Notes: generated by a model not told the origin, from the sequence alone. Counted from the stretch's first letter, positions 2,222-51,416 are shown. The stretch: 52,449 nucleotides of DNA from Candidatus Moranbacteria bacterium UBA1302 (GCA_002307715.1 DBUA01000035.1:1-52449); one strand, 5' to 3'. Numbers and translations are program-made.

Positions 2222-3214
2222 TCAAAGATTGATAGGTAATTCGTCAATCCCGTATTCGGAGAGTTTTTTGCTTACTTCATCTGAAAAAGATATAGACGCT
2301 CCAATGAATCCTTGAGCTTTAGATAGAATTGCTATTTGGCCGATCGGATCGTCCTGTGTTGGTTTCAATTCATTTTTAAGCTGTGATGCATAGAGAGCCA
2401 TTCGGAGCGCTTTTATATGCACATCGAGCATTTCTTCCGGCACCTCTATGTCTTTGATCCCTTTGAATAATTCGTCTCCTTTATCACTGAGCTGATCGAG
2501 ATAACTCATATCTCCCGATGCAAGAGCTGAAATTGATGAGCTTGATAGAGTATCGAGCATATTACTGAAATCATCACCGGTATGGAATGACGTCGGAGAA
2601 TTGTTGGCGATAAGATACGAGACTGAGGTGAGATATTCAGTAGCGTCCTCTTTTTTGGCCTCTTTTTCTGCTTTTGTCCCTAGTTTTTTTGAGGGAGATT
2701 TCTTTATTTTAATGTCAGACATGTTTATTTCAGGCAAAATCACTTCTGAAGTACTCCCGTTCATTATATTTTGGACGGCTGTATTGACTTGCTCTACAGA
2801 GACCGCCTCGTCACCTGAACTATTTTTTATAACTTTTGCAATTTCATTTGAAACCTGTTCCGTTAAGTTAGTATTATTTACATTGGCGGAAGCATCGGTA
2901 ACGTTTGTTGATGATGAAACGGTAACGATTTTGTCTCCAGGAGCTTTTTTCAGAGGATTATAACCGCTTAAAACTTCAACTCCATCAGAATAGCCATCCC
3001 CGTCAGAATCTTTGTTATAGGGATCTGTGCCGTAAAGTGACTCTTCGTCGTTGCTGAGCCCATCCCCGTCAGAATCTTGAAATATGTTTTTTCCTGAAAC
3101 TGAATCATCAGCAAGAACAAAAAAAGCCATACTGAAAAACAGCAGGCCTGAGAACACAAACAACGAAACGCGCACACTCTTCGCAGAAATTTCGCGAAAG
3201 AATGATGGAATCAT
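2222..3214 (-). CDS. Membrane-anchored/secreted protein with thrombospondin-type-3-like Ca-binding repeats
   Basis: 330-aa ORF with an N-terminal TM segment and DSDGDGLSNDEE / DSDGDGYSDG repeats. It lies 36 nt upstream of the 1229..2185 CDS on the same strand. Confidence 0.75.
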   Translation of the reverse strand: MIPSFFREISAKSVRVSLFVFSGLLFFSMAFFVLADDSVSGKNIFQDSDGDGLSNDEESLYGTDPYNKDSDGDGYSDGVEVLSGYNPLKKAPGDKIVTVSSSTNVTDASANVNNTNLTEQVSNEIAKVIKNSSGDEAVSVEQVNTAVQNIMNGSTSEVILPEINMSDIKIKKSPSKKLGTKAEKEAKKEDATEYLTSVSYLIANNSPTSFHTGDDFSNMLDTLSSSSISALASGDMSYLDQLSDKGDELFKGIKDIEVPEEMLDVHIKALRMALYASQLKNELKPTQDDPIGQIAILSKAQGFIGASISFSDEVSKKLSEYGIDELPINL

Positions 3215-44158: not shown

Positions 44159-46402
44159 ATGAAATTCTGGGAACGAGGTTTGAATCCTGAACAGCGTCGA
44201 GCCGTCCTTCAAACGGAAGGTCCAGTGCTTATCTTAGCCGGCGCAGGCTCCGGAAAAACTAAGACGCTGACGCATCGCATCGCCTATCTTCTGGATGAGA
44301 AGAAAGTGCCTCCAACGCATATTCTAGCCGTGACATTTACGAACAAGGCAGCGCAAGAAATGCGTGAGCGCATCGAGACGCTTCTTTCCAAAAGCGCAGC
44401 CGCTGAATATGGATTTGTGGCTATTCCTCAATACATCGGAACATTTCATAATATCTGTTGTCGTATTCTTCGGCGAGAAATCGAAACGCTTGGATACAGT
44501 AAGAATTTCAATATAGTCGATAGTTCCGACCAGGAAGCGCTCGTCAAGAAAGCGATGCGTGAGCTCGAGATCGATCCAGACCAGGTGAAGCCGCGCGCTG
44601 TCCTTGATGCTATCTCGCGTGCTAAGAATGCTTTCAAGAGCGAGGAGCAGTTCATGCTCGAGGCCGGTAGCTATTTCGAAGAGATTATCGCCCGGGTTTA
44701 CACGGCCTATCAGAAGGCGCTCCGTGCGGGGAACAGTCTCGATTTCGACGATCTCATTATGCTCACAGTCCGGCTTTTCCAGGAGCATCCAGAGGTACTT
44801 GCACGTTATCAGGATATTTTCCGTTATGTCATGGTCGACGAGTATCAGGACACCAATTATCCGCAGTATCTTTTGGTGACACTTCTCGCAGGCAAGCATA
44901 AGAACATCTTCGTTATCGGTGATGACTATCAGTCAATTTATGGTTGGCGTCAAGCGGATATCCGCAATATCCTCAATTTTGAGAAGGACTATCCGGAAGC
45001 AGCGGTCATTACGCTCGATCAGAATTATCGCTCGACGCAGATCATTCTTGATGCGGCGCATGGCGTTATCGAGCGCAACAAGAACCAGCGTCATAAGAAG
45101 CTTTGGACCGAAGGGAAGGGTGGTGACCTGATCGCACTCGTGCCGGCCGAAGACGAAGAGGCAGAAGCGCGTTTCGTGGCAGAGACGATTGCACGCGAGC
45201 AGAAAGAAGGAAAGAAGTTCAGCGACTTCGCTGTGCTCTATCGTACCAATGCACAGTCCCGCATGATCGAAGAAATGTTCCTTCGGCATTCGGTGGAGTA
45301 TCGTATCGTGGGCGGACTCAAGTTTTATCAGCGCAAGGAAGTGAAGGATATGGTTGCGTATGTGAGGCTCCTCGAGAATCCTCGCGACATGCTCGCGCTT
45401 GAGCGGGTCATCAATGAACCCAAGCGAGGTTTGGGCGATGCGACGCTCGCCCGCTGGACCAGTTTCGCCCGTACGAATGACCTTGATTTCTTCGAGGCTG
45501 CGTATCGGATGACACCAGAAACGAGCGATCTCCGTGAAGGCAAGATCAAGGCGATTCGCGAGTTCTCAGATGTTTTTATCAAGCTTCGCCTCGAGATGGG
45601 CGAGTATCCTGATCTCAAGCTACCGGAGCTGCTTGATAAGATCGGTCGCGCGAGCGGCTATGTCAGTAGTCTCAATGACGGTACAGCGGAAGGCGAGGCG
45701 CGAGAGGAGAACGTGCGCGAGCTCCTCACCGTTGCCAAGAAGCATGACGACTTGCCGCTTGCCGAAGCGCTCCACCTGTTTCTCGAAGAAGTGGCACTTT
45801 CTTCCGATACCGATGAGATCAGCCGCAATACTGATGCAGTCCATGTGATGACACTCCACAGCGCCAAGGGTCTCGAGTTTCCGACGGTCTTCATCCTCGG
45901 CCTTGAAGAAGGTATCTTCCCACATTCGCGCGCGCAGCTTTCGCAGGCAGAGCTTGAGGAAGAGCGCCGACTCATGTATGTAGGACTGACTCGTGCCAAG
46001 GAGCACGTGTATCTCCTTCATACCGAGAGCCGCACTATCTTCGGTTCGACTCAAATCAATCCACCATCGCGCTTCATCGCGGAGATTCCGGCCGATCTGA
46101 TTGAAGAGCGCGACCGCGTGAGCTCCGGTATGATGGGCAAGAAATATTTCCAGCGGTCATTCCAGCGCTATCCGTCTGCACCAAAAAAGAAGCTTGCTGC
46201 TCCGGTAGCAAAATCAGAAAGCGTCGCACCGGCAGGCGCGCCGCTTCAGCTTGGCGAGGTACGCCCAGGAGATATGGTGGAGCATCCGCAGTTCGGCTCG
46301 GGGCTCATCGTCTCGATCGCAGGCACGCTCGCGACCATCGCCTTCAAACGCGCAGGCGTGAAGAAGATGATGCTCGGCGTCGCTCCGCTTACGAAGGTAT
46401 AA
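44159..46402 (+). CDS. pcrA: UvrD/PcrA-family ATP-dependent DNA helicase
   Basis: AGAGSGKTKTLTHRIAYLL, VDEYQDTN, DQNYRST and the TLHSAKGLEFPTVF motifs. Confidence 0.95.
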   Translation: MKFWERGLNPEQRRAVLQTEGPVLILAGAGSGKTKTLTHRIAYLLDEKKVPPTHILAVTFTNKAAQEMRERIETLLSKSAAAEYGFVAIPQYIGTFHNICCRILRREIETLGYSKNFNIVDSSDQEALVKKAMRELEIDPDQVKPRAVLDAISRAKNAFKSEEQFMLEAGSYFEEIIARVYTAYQKALRAGNSLDFDDLIMLTVRLFQEHPEVLARYQDIFRYVMVDEYQDTNYPQYLLVTLLAGKHKNIFVIGDDYQSIYGWRQADIRNILNFEKDYPEAAVITLDQNYRSTQIILDAAHGVIERNKNQRHKKLWTEGKGGDLIALVPAEDEEAEARFVAETIAREQKEGKKFSDFAVLYRTNAQSRMIEEMFLRHSVEYRIVGGLKFYQRKEVKDMVAYVRLLENPRDMLALERVINEPKRGLGDATLARWTSFARTNDLDFFEAAYRMTPETSDLREGKIKAIREFSDVFIKLRLEMGEYPDLKLPELLDKIGRASGYVSSLNDGTAEGEAREENVRELLTVAKKHDDLPLAEALHLFLEEVALSSDTDEISRNTDAVHVMTLHSAKGLEFPTVFILGLEEGIFPHSRAQLSQAELEEERRLMYVGLTRAKEHVYLLHTESRTIFGSTQINPPSRFIAEIPADLIEERDRVSSGMMGKKYFQRSFQRYPSAPKKKLAAPVAKSESVAPAGAPLQLGEVRPGDMVEHPQFGSGLIVSIAGTLATIAFKRAGVKKMMLGVAPLTKV

Positions 46403-46423
46403 AATCAGAGAAGCAAAGAAAAA

Positions 46424-46453
46424 ACGGGCGATAGAAGATTCTCTATCGCCCGT
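46424..46453. terminator. 12-bp GC-rich hairpin between pcrA and the NadV remnant
   Basis: acgggcgataga/tctatcgcccgt. The T-run is better on the minus strand. Confidence 0.5.
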
Positions 46454-46466
46454 TGTGCTTGCCGGC

Positions 46467-46862
46467 TCATGCCTTTGCGGCACGGGCACTGATGTCAGCG
46501 AAGGACTGTTCGCGGACGAGCTCGCCGTTCTCGAAGACAGTCTCGAGCAGGTCTTCGCCCGGAGCGCTTTCGCGGACCGTGGCGAACCCCGAGGCGTCGC
46601 GGATGAGTTTCATCCGTCCGGCCTTGGAGCGCTTGCCCGGGTCGGTGACCGGATCCTTCATGGCATCCTGCCAGCCGCTCTCGTCTTCGGTTGCAGAGCA
46701 CTTGAAGGCGAACTTGCAGGTATCGCGATCTACCTTCTGGAGTAGCCTGCCGCCGGAGCCGAAGGCAATGTTGTCAGCCGCCCAGCCAAGCTCTATGCCT
46801 TCTCCGACCGCAAACTGAAAATCATCGACGTGCTGTGATATGAGGAATAAAAAAAGAGGCGG
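46467..46862 (-). pseudogene. C-terminal fragment of nicotinamide phosphoribosyltransferase (NadV/NAMPT), 5'-truncated
   Basis: My hand translation of the minus frame is open from 46862. It reads ...GIELGWAADNIAFGSGGRLLQKVDRDTCKFAFKCSATEDESGWQDAMKDPVTDPGKRSKAGRMKL...ETVFENGELV...*. This aligns by eye with the NAMPT block NIAFGSGGGLLQK...FKCS...KDPVADPNKRSKKGR. It has no N-terminal two-thirds and no start. The segment is visibly G+C-rich. Confidence 0.75.
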
Positions 46863-46869
46863 TCATCCG

Positions 46870-46926
46870 GTCACTTCTTTTTTCTTTTTCTATGAAAGCT
46901 TTTAAGGATTTCTTTGAGGTGTTTGT
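46870..46926 (-). pseudogene. Orphan degenerate copy of the recombinase gene 3' end (repeat copy A)
   Basis: By hand alignment 51 of 57 nt match 48908-48964, and the first 21 nt are identical. It translates to ..THKHLKEILKSFHRKRKKK* against ..TNERLKEIHKNFHGKRKKK* in the intact gene. Confidence 0.75.
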
Positions 46927-47031
46927 GTGTGAAAAGATGATGTTTGGTGTTGTACTGTTGAGGTAATCCCGCTTTTTATAGAGGGTTTTTTTGTGATATT
47001 ATAAACATTATAAGGCTTGACATATATAGTT

Positions 47032-48861
47032 ATGGGAACTATCGAACAGGGACCTCAGGGTGGTCGTAGTTTTGATAAAATTGAACAGGGACCTCAGGGT
47101 GGTCGTGATTTGAATAAATATGAAGAGGTATTAGGTTTCAAGAGGACAGAGTTGGAAGGTCAGACCGTGCTTGATTTGGGTGCTGGGCCAGGTGGAAGAT
47201 TCGCGAAGGAACTGTCGGCAGCCGGCGTGCATGCTCAAGTCGTGTCGCTCAGCCCCGATTATGCCAATGAGAAAAATCGGCAGCTTTTTGAGCGGACTTT
47301 GCCCGAAAAATTAAAGAGTCTTTTGCGACCCGTTAGTGAGCAACCGGGGAGGGCTGCTGTCGCAGCATGGGCGGAGTCACTTCCTTTTAAGAACGAGTCT
47401 TTTGAGAGGATCCTAGCTCTTTTTTCTGTTTCGGTGTGGTCCGAGGGCAATTATAAGCAGTGGTTACCAGAAATCATTCGCGTTCTCAAATCCGGAGGTG
47501 AAGCCCGGATAGGTCCTTTTCATCCCGCTGAATTCGATATGTATGATGGCGATCTTATGATTCAGCAACGAGAGCGGATGCATCAGTATATAGCAGCATT
47601 AGGATACGAGGTCGATTACATTCCCGGTTCCGAGGCGGGTCAAACGGTACTCGTGCTCCGAAAACAACGTAAGGATCTGGCATCGTCCCAGTCTTCCGCC
47701 GAAACTTCCCAGGAGTCTCTTCGGAGAATTATTGATCGGGTGAATATCGATGTGGAGAATCAGAGAAAACCACAACTCTCTGCTTCCGAATATTCGAGGG
47801 AGCAGTTCTCAATTCTGGAGAAAAGTTTCGATGGGTCTTTGCTTGAAGAGGGTCCATCAGTCGTCGGGGTCGTCAGATGTTGGAATAAGAAAGAGAAAGA
47901 CTTGGCTGAATTCCTTGAGAGGATCGAGAGGTTTAAACAAGGGATACCCTCCCTAAAAGGCGTACTTCTTATTATCAATAAAGACGGAGAAAAGAGTGGG
48001 AGTGTTACCGAAGAAAGCCTGAAGGCTGCTTTGGATCAGAGGAGTGTCTCGATACCCGTAGTTCCGCTTCAGGTTGAAGGGTATTCTTGGACTGCTGGAT
48101 TGAATGCTGGGGCGGCTGTGCTGAATGAGATGTGCCTGGAACGGTCGATCAGTCGGAAAGATTTGCGGGTGGCGAATTTTTCTTTCGATACAGATTTGGA
48201 TGAGGAGGGGTTGAAACAGTGCAATGCCAACATCCAGGAGAATACATTGGTTGTCACTGCCCGGAAAACATCCGATGGTCGATCGCCTTTCATAGCCGGG
48301 CATGGTGGCGGGGAGCTCTGGGAGAGATTCACAACGATGTTGCGTTCACCGAAAGCTGCGAAATTGTCGGAGCTTGCTTATACGATGCGCAATACCTTCA
48401 ATGTGATTTCGCTTCAAGATATCATTTCTATGGGTGGTTTCAACCCGCTGTGCAACGGAGATACCTTCTCTTCCAATCGTCCTGAGCCTTTCTTGCAGAT
48501 GAGACGCTCCGAAGAAGTAGCGATCGCCGGGATGGAGGATATAGAATTTTTTATGCGGTTTATCTTCCGTGCGCTCAAAAAAGGTGACATAAGCGCATTG
48601 AAAGAATTGAGGACGGCCATGGATACCCCTGTGTTTTATCGGGATACGTCCTGGGAAGATTTGCATGAACTGAAGAAGATAGATAAAATCGGCAACGAGA
48701 TGGTGGCCCTCTCGCTTATCCTCAGTGAGCTTTCCGGGAAGAAAGCTATGCCGACTCAGAATGCTGGAGAAACGAAGACAGTCGGGCTAGTGAAAGATTT
48801 CTATGTTCCACGGGTCATGCAGGATTTTGCTTTGCGCAAGGAAGACGAACAGCGTGGCTGA
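47032..48861 (+). CDS. Fusion protein: N-terminal tandem repeat + class I SAM-methyltransferase + GT-A (GT2-like) glycosyltransferase
   Basis: The repeat is IEQGPQGGR(S/D)(F/L)(D/N)K x2. The MTase motif I is VLDLGAGPGGRFAKEL, plus LKSGGEARI. The C-terminal half has VVGVVRCWNKKEKDL, WTAGLNAGAAV, FSFDTDLD and GGFNPL...GMEDIEFFMR. The start is ATG at 47032 or TTG at 47017. Confidence 0.75.
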   Translation: MGTIEQGPQGGRSFDKIEQGPQGGRDLNKYEEVLGFKRTELEGQTVLDLGAGPGGRFAKELSAAGVHAQVVSLSPDYANEKNRQLFERTLPEKLKSLLRPVSEQPGRAAVAAWAESLPFKNESFERILALFSVSVWSEGNYKQWLPEIIRVLKSGGEARIGPFHPAEFDMYDGDLMIQQRERMHQYIAALGYEVDYIPGSEAGQTVLVLRKQRKDLASSQSSAETSQESLRRIIDRVNIDVENQRKPQLSASEYSREQFSILEKSFDGSLLEEGPSVVGVVRCWNKKEKDLAEFLERIERFKQGIPSLKGVLLIINKDGEKSGSVTEESLKAALDQRSVSIPVVPLQVEGYSWTAGLNAGAAVLNEMCLERSISRKDLRVANFSFDTDLDEEGLKQCNANIQENTLVVTARKTSDGRSPFIAGHGGGELWERFTTMLRSPKAAKLSELAYTMRNTFNVISLQDIISMGGFNPLCNGDTFSSNRPEPFLQMRRSEEVAIAGMEDIEFFMRFIFRALKKGDISALKELRTAMDTPVFYRDTSWEDLHELKKIDKIGNEMVALSLILSELSGKKAMPTQNAGETKTVGLVKDFYVPRVMQDFALRKEDEQRG

Positions 48862-48892
48862 ATTTTGCACGGGATTTTTTTTGATTTTGCAC

Positions 48893-48920
48893 AAAAAGAA
48901 GTGACATGTCACTTCTTTTT
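48893..48920. terminator. Perfect 28-bp palindrome (bidirectional terminator) overlapping the recombinase stop codon
   Basis: aaaaagaagtgaca|tgtcacttcttttt. The right arm coincides with the start of repeat copy B. Confidence 0.65.
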
Positions 48921-48964
48921 TCTTTTTCCATGAAAGTTTTTATGGATTTCTTTCAGGCGTTCGT
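48908..48964. repeat. Repeat copy B (intact 3' end of the recombinase gene)
   Basis: This is the partner of 46870-46926. The two copies are direct repeats 2038 bp apart. Confidence 0.8.
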
Positions 48965-49901
48965 TGGTGATATGGGTGTAGACTTGTGTGGTAGTGATAG
49001 AGGAATGGCCGAGCATAGACTGGACGCTGCGGATGTCGGCGCCGTTGACCAGAAGATCGGTCGCGAAGGAGTGGCGGAGCGTGTGCGGATGGACGTCTTT
49101 CACGATGCCGGCTTTTTTGGCGTAGTGCTTGACGATGCGTTGGATGCTGCGAGGAGTAAGTCTCAGCGTGTCACGAGTTGAATTTTTCCGATTAGTGAGA
49201 CCTTTTTTCCCATGTGAAACGAAGAGTGCCGGGTCGATGTCGGTCCGTTTAGCGAGATACGTTTCGAGAGCTTTCTTCGCTGTGGGTGATATGAAAACGA
49301 TGCGGAGTTTCGATCCTTTGCCTCGAACGCTGAATTCTTCTTTATCGAGATTGACATGGTTCCTATCAAGACCGATAAGCTCTGAAACACGCAGACCGGA
49401 AGAGAAGAGCAGCTCGAGGATAGCGCGATCACGGAGAGTCTTTAGGGCAGAACCTTCAGTCGCAGACAGAAGCCGTTCGATCTCATCGTATTCTAAGAAG
49501 TCTACCTGCCGATCCGGTATGCGTCCGATTTCGATCTTTTCGGCTGCGAACGCTTTGACATCCTGTTTTGCGAGATATTTGAGGAATGTGCGCAGGACAA
49601 CGGCATGATAGGCTTGGCTGTTTTTCTTGAGCGTTGTACCGAAACGAGTCATTTTCCTGTTGAGATAAATACGGTATTCACGCACTTTTTCAGCATTGAT
49701 GTCTTCGGTATGGCGGATGTTTCCCCAAGCAAAAAAAGCGTTCAAGGTATGGCCATAGCTTTCGAGCGTGCGAGGAGAACGATTCATCTCGATTTCCATA
49801 TGCTCGAGAAAGCGTTTTGCCAGCATCCCGATTTCAGTAGCCGGATTTTCGAAGAAGCGTTTCATAAGTTGCTTCATAAGACGACATTGGAAGTATACCA
49901 T
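48909..49901 (-). CDS. Tyrosine recombinase (XerC/XerD/phage-integrase family)
   Basis: HPHTLRHSFATDLLVNGADIRSVQSMLGHSSITTTQVYTHI carries the R..H-x-x-R..Y catalytic signature. The N-terminus has a SAM-like core-binding domain. Confidence 0.92.
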   Translation of the reverse strand: MVYFQCRLMKQLMKRFFENPATEIGMLAKRFLEHMEIEMNRSPRTLESYGHTLNAFFAWGNIRHTEDINAEKVREYRIYLNRKMTRFGTTLKKNSQAYHAVVLRTFLKYLAKQDVKAFAAEKIEIGRIPDRQVDFLEYDEIERLLSATEGSALKTLRDRAILELLFSSGLRVSELIGLDRNHVNLDKEEFSVRGKGSKLRIVFISPTAKKALETYLAKRTDIDPALFVSHGKKGLTNRKNSTRDTLRLTPRSIQRIVKHYAKKAGIVKDVHPHTLRHSFATDLLVNGADIRSVQSMLGHSSITTTQVYTHITNERLKEIHKNFHGKRKKK

Positions 49902-50017
49902 ACCGTTTCTGGGATTTTGAATGATGATTCGGTTTGAAGATCATGATTTTCGGTGGATCTTTTTGTAGAAATATGCTTTTAATAAGCCAAAATAAGAGAT
50001 TTATAACTATTTTTTCA

Positions 50018-50046
50018 TTGACGGGCGACTGTTTCCGGGCTACACT
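50018..50046 (+). promoter_or_regulatory. Promoter of the LysM-CHAP gene
   Basis: TTGACG-17 nt-TACACT, leaving a leader of about 125 nt before the ATG at 50178. Confidence 0.5.
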
Positions 50047-50177
50047 GGTTTGGTAAAAATTAGGGCAAACTCCCATAGGCATCCTGAGACCGATAGTGCG
50101 GTAGGATTTCTTCAGAGTTTTGCTGATTGAAAGGCGAGAGTCTTATCAGTACTCAACCCTCCATCTTTTCCAGAATT

Positions 50178-51416
50178 ATGCGGCGGCATAGGTCGATAGC
50201 ATCCGACCAAACCCCCGCGTCTTTTGAGAAGACCTGTTGGTCGGATCGTTTTCGGCGGTTCCATACTCGCGTTCACCATGTCCAGTCGAAGGTTCTCCAC
50301 TTTATCAAGGAGATTTCAGGATATAGAGTCGTCCGTGTTTTCCGGAATTATTCCGCTTTTTCCATAGTGGCATCGAGCGCCCTTCTGGTATCGGCGAGCA
50401 ATTTCGCGCACGATAAGGATCCGGACAGTATGCTTTTCGGCTATGTCCATAGCGATTCTTCACAGGCGGAAGGTGTTACGAAGCGCCGTTTGGCTGCCCA
50501 AGTGAGCAAGAAAGAGAATCTTGCATTGGTTCCGCTCGCTAATGCTCCCAGTGCTGTCGATCCGGACCAGAAAGACGATGCGACACTGTATGATTTGCAA
50601 GGTGGAAATGTCCAGGATTCCATAATCCTCTCATCTCAAGCTGGCGCGCCGTCCATGTCTAAGGATCCCGAAGAGGATGGTGGTGTAAAAATCTACACTG
50701 TTGCATCGGGCGATACCATCAGCGGTATAGCCGCCAAGTTTGGTATTACGGTTAATACGATCCTCTGGGCGAATGATTTCGATAATGTCGATGAAATCAA
50801 ACCTGGTGATCAGATATTCATTCTTCCTGTCGCGGGTCTTTCTTACGTTGTGCAATCGGGAGACACTATCGACACCATCGCTACGAAATATAAAGCTGAA
50901 AAAGACAAGATCATCGCTTTCAATAGTTTGCCAGCCAATGGTGAACTTCACGTTGGTGATTCCATTATTATTCCTGATGGAAAAAAAGACATGCCGGCTC
51001 AGACAAGCGCCTCCCAGTCCGGCTTAGAGCGTCGGCAGTACGCATCTTCGACAGGTGGCGCTGCGACTGATATTTCCGGTTATCGGACATTATCTGGCAA
51101 TCCGAGTTCCGGTCATCGGTTCCCATATGGCTGGTGTACATGGTATGTAGCGCAGAAACGATATGTGCCGTGGGGAGGGAATGCTGGAACTTGGCTGTAT
51201 AATGCCAAGGCTCTTGGATACAAAACTGGTCGTAAGCCGGCTGTCGGGGCTATTATGGTAACGACAGAAAATCGTTATTATGGGCATGTCGCGCTCGTTG
51301 AGAGGGTTGATGGTGACACGATTACGGTCAGTGAAATGAATTATGTAAAATGGGGCAAGGTGGATCGTCGGACTCTTTCGGCTTCCAGCCGCGCTGTGAA
51401 AGGATTCATTTATTAG
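50178..51416 (+). CDS. Membrane-anchored LysM (x2-3) + CHAP-domain peptidoglycan hydrolase
   Basis: LysM blocks are YTVASGDTISGIAAKFGITVNTILWAN and YVVQSGDTIDTIATKYK. The CHAP block is GWCTWYVAQKR...YGHVALVERV (Cys/His). The start could be TTG at 50127 or ATG at 50178. Confidence 0.85.
   Translation: MRRHRSIASDQTPASFEKTCWSDRFRRFHTRVHHVQSKVLHFIKEISGYRVVRVFRNYSAFSIVASSALLVSASNFAHDKDPDSMLFGYVHSDSSQAEGVTKRRLAAQVSKKENLALVPLANAPSAVDPDQKDDATLYDLQGGNVQDSIILSSQAGAPSMSKDPEEDGGVKIYTVASGDTISGIAAKFGITVNTILWANDFDNVDEIKPGDQIFILPVAGLSYVVQSGDTIDTIATKYKAEKDKIIAFNSLPANGELHVGDSIIIPDGKKDMPAQTSASQSGLERRQYASSTGGAATDISGYRTLSGNPSSGHRFPYGWCTWYVAQKRYVPWGGNAGTWLYNAKALGYKTGRKPAVGAIMVTTENRYYGHVALVERVDGDTITVSEMNYVKWGKVDRRTLSASSRAVKGFIY

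Follow-up and report, generated by a model that had tools for sequence, protein, structure and literature searches.

Organization of the recombinase locus

We analysed a 52,449-nt stretch of DNA from Candidatus Moranbacteria bacterium UBA1302 (GCA_002307715.1, DBUA01000035.1:1-52449; hereafter the window, with positions counted from its first letter). It contains a tyrosine recombinase gene, rec, whose 3′ end is present twice, once in place and once as an orphan copy, with a single gene predicted to encode a methyltransferase–glycosyltransferase fusion (MT-GT, the cargo) lying between the two. The segment comprises the following features.

46870..46932, minus strand: orphan rec 3′ end, apparently decaying; last 63 nt of rec (19 2/3 codons, the stop codon and 1 nt past it)
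46933..47031, plus strand: cargo upstream region with a predicted extended −10 promoter, TGATATTAT, ending at 47002 (promoter scan)
47032..48861, plus strand: cargo, predicted S-adenosylmethionine (SAM)-dependent methyltransferase/GT-A glycosyltransferase fusion, 609 aa (614 aa with an alternative TTG start at 47017)
48893..48920, no strand: perfect palindrome (14+14 inverted repeat), putative bidirectional terminator shared by the cargo and rec
48908..48970, minus strand: intact 63-nt copy, the in-frame end of rec, encoding the C-terminal helix and Lys tail beyond the catalytic Tyr
48909..49901, minus strand: rec, predicted XerA-type tyrosine recombinase, 330 aa (Pfam, NCBIfam and PDB matches)

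A repeat search of the window revealed a 63-nt direct repeat (46870-46932 and 48908-48970) with a spacing of 2038 nt and 55 of 63 positions (87%) identical, the first 21 nt without a difference. A preliminary description of this DNA, made from the sequence alone, had counted 51 matches in 57 nt with the first 21 identical; our recount agreed, and the repeat extended to 63 nt. No homology was found past this point, as a local alignment of the next 84 nt scored 9.0 against a shuffle mean of 8.96. Read on the minus strand, the orphan retained the reading frame and stop codon and translated to ..THKHLKEILKSFHRKRKKK, compared with ..TNERLKEIHKNFHGKRKKK at the intact rec end, in line with the recognisable but diverged C-terminus described earlier. 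The repeat might also have been a common terminator-associated motif, as the preliminary description had allowed, but within the 52-kb window the 13-mer GTCACTTCTTTTT matched exactly only at 46870(+), 48908(+) and 48893(−), the last being the left arm of the palindrome. A third partial match to the repeat (50103-50132) was weak, with 70% identity over part of the repeat only, and was judged to be due to chance.

The duplicated segment begins three codons past the catalytic tyrosine, between TQVYTH and ITNER, and the swapped part of the protein is the C-terminal helix with its Lys tail. In archaeal XerA, the corresponding C-terminal helix reportedly regulates activity.

Two Logan contigs from different runs were 100% and 99.97% identical to the window over the entire structure, and a JGI assembly had the same gene order. 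The repeat and insert are thus not an assembly artefact, since three assemblies agree. These three independent assemblies of the strain all stop 25–50 nt upstream of the rec start codon, within 49925-49950 (the two Logan contigs at 49950, the JGI contig near 49925), whereas the window sequence continues through; the shared stop suggests population-level variation at this point.

The recombinase is a conserved XerA-type orthologue

Rec carried the Pfam domains Phage_integrase (PF00589, 1.5e-43) and SAM-like (PF02899, 2e-08). It scored 236.9 bits against the XerA-type model NF040815 of NCBIfam, above the cut-off of 220, and 247 bits against the XerC and XerD models, under their cut-offs of 335 and 330; its closest PDB matches were XerD and XerA. 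Scores against the integron-integrase models were 127 bits for TIGR02249 (cut-off 265) and 87 bits for NF011946 (cut-off 435). Orthologues with 45–80% identity were found in 33 Patescibacteria genomes, with the tail (..LKEIHKNFH followed by a Lys-rich end and the stop) and the neighbouring genes conserved, and 1636 proteins matched Rec at E ≤ 1e-100. Each locus across the 33 genomes held one rec copy, copy number being counted within the fetched loci. Judged from these matches, Rec appears to be a conserved XerA-type orthologue that is single-copy within the fetched loci, and the earlier hint against annotating it as a housekeeping XerC/D did not hold, as that label is not wrong.

Between lineages, rec alone is inverted in situ. 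In L008 (6482-12341; L numbers denote loci and contigs fetched for comparison) and L009 the order is uvrD(+), beta-helix gene(+), rec(+), LysM-CHAP gene(+), whereas in L005 (8488-14573) and the window (44159-51416) rec lies on the opposite strand with the same neighbours. Inverted repeats flanking the inverted rec were looked for in L008, and none were found. An open reading frame at 2222-3214 of the window, also exactly 330 aa, is unrelated to Rec and encodes a bacterial TSP3-repeat protein.

The inserted gene

Pfam detected a methyltransferase domain only, in the N-terminal part of the cargo protein. The C-terminal 389 aa were modelled with a predicted template modelling score (pTM) of 0.81, and the PDB matches of this model were GT-A glycosyltransferases only, so that the protein is best described as a predicted methyltransferase–glycosyltransferase fusion. 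It is the sole open reading frame with family support between the repeat copies, as the preliminary description had it, and no recombinase, integrase or other mobility gene was found within the 2-kb unit. Nine homologues of MT-GT were found among 5.8 billion proteins; in other genomes they occupy ordinary chromosomal contexts without an adjacent recombinase, and no relatives were matched in phage, plasmid and IMG/VR viral collections. One 74%-identical fusion lies on a 1955-nt contig from another run (L039, SRR16297629), and an alignment showed that the −10 element of the cargo promoter is conserved there.

A Patescibacteria contig (L040, 6801-8722) carries a 224-aa Methyltransf_11 gene directly before a 407-aa GT-A homologue, and the MT-GT gene of the window would therefore be a fusion of genes that elsewhere neighbour each other. 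Its 5′ end contains a tandem 39-nt repeat (47041-47118; two copies, 87% identical) encoding IEQGPQGGRSFDK and IEQGPQGGRDLNK before the methyltransferase domain.

Gene content varies at the 3′ end of rec

The window was compared with 37 other rec loci fetched from relatives. For gene content we considered relatives with at least 70% identical Rec and a visible 3′ flank; the contig of L007 stops just past rec. The 3′ neighbours of rec were as follows.

Window: MT-GT
L003 and L010: uvrD (empty state)
L004: NAD (nicotinamide adenine dinucleotide) island
L005: beta-helix gene, then uvrD
L006: DUF1761, AHSA1, MsrA
L046: outer membrane protein (OMP)-like gene, then nrtR
L047: unknown gene, then LD-carboxypeptidase
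L167: TerC, MerT, Msr, DsbD

The gene beside the rec stop codon thus differed in each relative compared, except for the rec–uvrD arrangement common to L003 and L010. On the 5′ side, a LysM-CHAP gene was the rec neighbour in every relative whose 5′ flank was visible. In more distant clades the 3′ neighbour was stable and consisted of tRNA genes. Empty sites, for which a search in relatives had been proposed, were found in other species: rec and uvrD are convergent and 10–30 bp apart in L003 and L010, and rec is followed directly by nrtR in L004. Among contigs with identical Rec, only occupied sites were found. Neither an orphan rec end in the 37 other loci nor att-like repeats bounding the other hotspot inserts in relatives were found.

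By this comparison, the rec 3′ end appears to be a genuine, lineage-specific gene-content hotspot in this Moranbacteria clade. The preliminary description had called it an active recombination hotspot; with the 3′ neighbours variable and the 5′ neighbour conserved the hotspot stands, but present activity finds no support, as the orphan is decayed and all three assemblies are occupied.

In L046, the GC-rich gene between rec and nrtR (1226-1774, 182 aa) has a weak match to an outer-membrane beta-barrel (OMP_b-brl). The Moranbacteria lineage is thought to have no outer membrane, which makes an OMP-like gene odd, and this gene is probably foreign. In L167 (130-7715), a type-IV-secretion/conjugation-like set with PrgI, a TraC-like protein and a VirB4/TraG-type ATPase lies past LysM-CHAP. 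In at least one relative, rec is thus at the edge of a conjugation-like cluster; the window ends short of the corresponding region.

The orphan lies in the ancestral flank of rec

The orphan copy is followed on its outer side by gene relics and then by uvrD, and the intact gene on its 5′ side by the LysM-CHAP gene.

44159..46402, plus strand: uvrD/pcrA helicase (Pfam UvrD-helicase/UvrD_C), conserved far boundary of the variable region; in relatives it converges on rec
46423..46454, no strand: GC-rich hairpin, putative uvrD terminator (inverted repeat and terminator scan)
46467..46787, minus strand: C-terminal fragment of a nadV/NAPRTase-family gene, about 107 codons (Pfam NAPRTase, profile positions 167-239 of 239 only)
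46777..46838, plus strand: nrtR-like (Nudix regulator) remnant, last ~20 codons and stop (alignment to the nrtR of L004)
46852..46884, no strand: degenerate hairpin, putative ancestral rec terminator (left arm homologous to the post-rec flank in L046 and L004)
50127..51416, plus strand: LysM-CHAP peptidoglycan hydrolase (Pfam), 5′ neighbour of rec, adjoining rec in L003, L004, L005, L047 and L167

The relatives L004 and L046, whose Rec proteins are 78% and 80% identical, carry an intact counterpart of these relics. In L004, rec and its terminator are followed by a convergent, intact nrtR leading an NAD-salvage island (nadR-like, pnuC, nadE, pncB), and L046 has the same island in the order rec, ..., nrtR, nadR-like, pnuC. 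The L004 NrtR protein matched the NCBIfam NtrR model under its curated cut-off, and the matching L046 gene carried the Pfam domains NUDIX and WHD_NrtR. The window remnant reads ..PAKLYAFSDRKLKIIDVL, and the L004 nrtR ends ..PAKLYTFSDRKLKIVDVL. In an alignment, 46777-46932 of the window was colinear with the rec end, spacer and nrtR end of L004, corresponding to the orphan, the degenerate hairpin (folding at −10.0/−8.5 kcal/mol) and the nrtR stub. Because the orphan is still attached to the nrtR flank as in L004 and L046, it is best read as the original rec 3′ end, displaced by the insert.

The nadV fragment has a G + C content of 0.60–0.63 and a third-codon-position G + C content (GC3) of 0.78, versus 0.43–0.53 in native genes, and is probably a relic of a foreign NAD-salvage island. 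The nadV and nrtR stubs (46467-46838) abut on opposite strands and resemble relics of a GC-rich island like the intact one of L004 and L046.

Age and origin of the duplication

Both repeat copies share AT-rich synonymous states (AAA, GAA, TTT, CAT), whereas all sampled orthologues have AAG, GAG, TTC and CAC at these codons. Between the orphan and the intact copy there are 8 differences, compared with 16–18 between the orphan and L046 or L047. The shared synonymous states and the fewer differences mark the copies as each other's closest relatives and as paralogues whose source was one lineage or a pair of very close ones. Amino acids of the orphan are altered by six of the 8 differences; the intact copy matches the family consensus at five of the six sites, and at the remaining one (Asn versus Ser) the closest relatives have Ser. 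This pattern points to a duplication within the lineage followed by neutral decay of the orphan.

All contigs with this exact Rec, from the three assemblies, carry the insert, and no empty or circular form was seen among them. Given the decayed orphan and the insert in all three assemblies, we hold with intermediate confidence that the insertion is an old, fixed event rather than an ongoing one; nowhere is present activity indicated, nor that Rec made the insertion.

The palindrome resembles a bidirectional terminator

The perfect 28-bp palindrome of the preliminary description was recovered at 48893-48920. Its right arm is formed by the run of Lys codons and the stop codon of rec, and the 63-nt repeat begins 1 nt past its centre. 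The hairpin folds at −12.4/−12.9 kcal/mol (z about −3.6) and was flagged by a terminator scan; about ten palindromes of unrelated sequence in the window, this one among them, share the A-tract/stem/T-tract build. Hairpins over the rec stop codon are built alike in L006, L010, L046 and L039, with loops of 4–10 nt, similar stabilities and compensatory stem changes (TGA/GTCAC versus TAA/GTTAC). By contrast, the palindrome is absent from the orthologous loci L003, L004, L005 and L167 (Rec 75–80% identical), and the AAGAAGT/ACTTCTT arm cores are spaced 3 nt differently in the window and in L039 (8 versus 11 nt). GC skew is positive across all 52 kb, with no switch at 48.9 kb, placing the window within one replichore. 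A search of the window and the 37 loci for a conserved dif-like 11-N(5-8)-11 palindrome returned only lineage-specific terminator-like hairpins.

The lack of conservation, the variable spacing and the absence of a skew switch fit a bidirectional RNA terminator rather than a conserved Xer binding site. We therefore interpret the palindrome as a putative bidirectional intrinsic terminator of two convergent genes, derived from the Lys-codon tail of rec. The site-specific reading in the preliminary description is weakened here, with the palindrome one of about ten terminator-like ones, missing from the closest orthologous loci and lineage-dependent in stem spacing. The same description had noted the motif ATTTTGCAC twice just outside the palindrome. 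Both copies are present, at 48862-48870 and 48884-48892, the second 1 nt from the position first given; as accessory sites they were rejected, since at least two copies occurred in 17 of 100 shuffles and the motif is absent from the homologous L039 spacer. A metagenome scan for the hairpin pattern AAAGAAGTRACN{0,8}GTYACTTCTTT returned at least 119 unrelated contigs (human gut, marine and others) with one hairpin each, none of those listed encoding a relative of Rec or of MT-GT. As a generic pattern, it was discarded.

Origin of the insertion

We consider homology-assisted insertion at a hotspot flanked by core genes to be the best explanation, with moderate confidence. The structure would be the old, fixed scar of a single-gene insertion between the convergent core genes rec and uvrD/pcrA. 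The MT-GT gene, with its own promoter, would have been inserted 63 nt before the rec end together with a replacement end, and the former neighbour, nrtR with its NAD-salvage island, later deleted down to two fragments. The analysis supports the earlier proposal that a gene was inserted into the rec 3′ end and that a second copy of the end keeps rec whole. The recombination may have used the rec 3′ end as homology, either when a circularised fragment that bore a rec end integrated by a Campbell-type single crossover, or through homology-facilitated illegitimate recombination after uptake of DNA from a close relative with the gene beside rec. Either homology route seems preferable to a recombinase acting on its own site, because two gene stubs are present, the other inserts have no att-like repeats, the palindrome is unconserved and the repeat runs 50 nt into coding sequence. 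Events at the locus were untidy, as the fragments nrtR′ and nadV′ show. The hotspot itself may result from homologous exchange anchored in the flanking core genes and from insertions being tolerated, in a compact genome, where two genes converge. A search for mosaic structure or breakpoints in rec and uvrD by sliding-window identity and GC3 gave no clear breakpoint; GC3 was slightly higher in the 3′ two-thirds of uvrD.

Three observations weigh against homology-assisted insertion. A tyrosine recombinase gene is both the immediate neighbour and the target of the insert, a suggestive proximity. In the orphan, all 8 substitutions fall in the 42 nt outside the hairpin arm and none in the 21 nt that form it (one-sided P about 0.03), which is weak evidence that the arm may have been maintained. 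The L039 contig starts with the 3′ 30 nt and finishes with the 5′ 30 nt of a single 33-nt hairpin, as a k=31 assembly graph would give if an exact 33-nt repeat (AAAAAAGAAGTAAC-GGATG-GTTACTTCTTTTTT) flanked the gene; site-specific exchange would leave a repeat matching the palindrome in this way, and homology-assisted insertion does not predict one. The neighbours of L039 were sought through KKK-ending proteins among the best 120 Rec homologues, and the contig fetched (L169) came from another run.

Site-specific capture is an alternative to which we assign a minor but appreciable probability. A circular MT-GT cassette would have been integrated at the rec-stop palindrome by the XerA-type or another tyrosine recombinase, at a site of two 11-bp inverted arms around a 6-bp centre, leaving one site on each side as integrative mobile elements exploiting Xer (IMEX) do at dif, or as integron cassettes do. 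In its favour are the identical 33-nt hairpins on both sides of the L039 homologue, the undecayed hairpin arm of the orphan, a cassette that encodes no recombinase and the hotspot that this clade has at the rec 3′ end. The flanks would also fit a crossover in the middle of the palindrome, with the left arm on the orphan side coming from the ancestral chromosome and that on the intact side from the cassette. XerA sites are 11-6-11 palindromes, the layout of the window palindrome, and xerS/difSL and some xerA/dif pairs are adjacent modules, so that single-Xer systems can adjoin their site (PMC5357621); mobile elements can also reveal unknown dif sites (PMC9765430). However, this site is missing from L003, L004, L005 and L167, a dimer-binding site would not tolerate the change in arm-core spacing, similar palindromes of unrelated sequence abound in the window, no skew switch marks it, and the other hotspot inserts have no flanking repeats. 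Simple site exchange also leaves unexplained why the repeat runs 50 nt past the palindrome into coding sequence. Precise excision predicts an empty-site junction ..GAGGCGGTCATCC-GGTCACTTCTTTTTTCTTTTTC-CATGAAAGTTTTTATGG.. (as search string CGGTCATCCGGTCACTTCTTTTTTCTTTTTCCATGAAAGTTTTTATGG) and a circular cassette junction ..TTTTGCACAAAAAGAAGTGACAT-GTCACTTCTTTTTTCTTTTTC-TATGAAAGCTTTTAAGG.. (as search string GCACAAAAAGAAGTGACATGTCACTTCTTTTTTCTTTTTCTATGAAAGCTTTTAAGG), yet neither an empty nor a circular form was found among the contigs with this exact Rec. The more specific proposal that the XerA-type recombinase of some Moranbacteria uses the palindrome at its own stop codon to capture, invert or release single-gene cassettes seems to us unlikely. 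The preliminary description had alternatively suggested tandem recombinase genes, one of them largely deleted. Two tandem or convergent rec copies, produced by accretion of a second element or by segmental duplication, would then have flanked MT-GT until one lost all but its last 63 nt. The orphan keeps its frame and stop, other deletions at the locus left the stubs nrtR′ and nadV′, and tandem tyrosine recombinase genes occur in L033; but the genes on the outside, nrtR beside the orphan and LysM-CHAP beside the intact gene, are those that ancestrally flanked one rec, so that a single insertion suffices without an extra gene copy, and neither a second copy nor an orphan was found in the 37 related loci. 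We regard this less parsimonious history as improbable. A chance or low-complexity match or an assembly chimera might be suspected from the T-rich, low-complexity first 21 nt, but was ruled out by the 55/63 identity in frame with a conserved protein tail, the agreement of three independent assemblies and the homology of the flank to relatives.

Comparison with known systems and implications

Islands that insert at gene 3′ ends and bring a substitute end with them include those in tRNA and tmRNA genes and SCCmec in rlmH/orfX. As in these, a direct repeat of the target end brackets the insert, the gene is kept intact with an orphan end left behind, and relatives have empty sites. By contrast, the insert is one 2-kb gene without an internal integrase or excisionase, and the gene it entered encodes a recombinase. 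The repeat copies share 87% identity, whereas those of such islands are nearly 100% identical, and excised forms were not seen. IMEX, exemplified by CTX-phi, TLC-phi, the gonococcal island and Legionella LME-1 (PMC5357621, PMC9765430), likewise carry cargo without its own recombinase, and here such cargo lies near an Xer-family enzyme with a palindromic 28-bp sequence at one junction. Whereas IMEX use dif at the replication terminus, the skew here does not switch, and the palindrome is unconserved among orthologous loci and terminator-like; the 2-kb unit is flanked by the palindrome and a degenerate copy, either of which is only putatively an Xer site. The xerS/difSL and xerA/dif modules (PMC5357621) also combine a single Xer-type recombinase with a palindrome right at the gene border, but their site is conserved across species, while here it is absent or different where Rec is 75–80% identical. 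With integron cassettes the unit shares its single gene, its position beside a tyrosine recombinase gene and, in L039, hairpin-forming border repeats. Unlike them, it follows the 3′ end of the recombinase gene instead of adjoining its 5′ end, carries a conserved extended −10 promoter, and has a hairpin without GTTRRRY/RYYYAAC attC cores; together with the low IntI model scores, these features rule out an integron.

Transfer hotspots flanked by core genes are a known kind of locus, as is homology-facilitated illegitimate recombination in naturally transformable bacteria. The rec locus is like them in that one interval between core genes holds different accessory genes in each relative, with gene stubs, imprecise junctions and no mobility genes. 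It is unlike them in that one junction lies inside a core gene, offset by a duplicated end, and natural transformation can only be presumed for this organism. Of the known kinds, a hotspot of horizontal transfer located between core genes fits best, and the scar that it bears here is unusually informative.

The locus also holds a caution: even a perfect palindrome next to the gene for a recombinase may not be the site of that enzyme. Should the doubtful proposal that Rec handles cassettes at its own stop codon be true, a housekeeping-type xer gene would serve at its 3′ end as a platform for cassettes, distinct from integrons and dif-targeting IMEX, MT-GT would be a cassette integrated in two lineages (the window and L039), and the inverted rec of L008/L009 would have arisen as a side effect.

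How bacteria of the Candidate Phyla Radiation, whose genomes are very small and densely packed with genes, acquire new genes is poorly understood. The locus described here, where a conserved xer-like gene ends, is a concrete gene-exchange hotspot of Moranbacteria, and its datable scar, an orphan and two stubs, would record the successive gain and loss of an NAD-salvage island and a cell-envelope-type MT-GT gene. If site-specific capture were responsible, the locus would exemplify a novel means by which a housekeeping-type recombinase recruits cassettes; if homology-assisted recombination was, as we favour, it would be a clean example of island turnover in an uncultured lineage.

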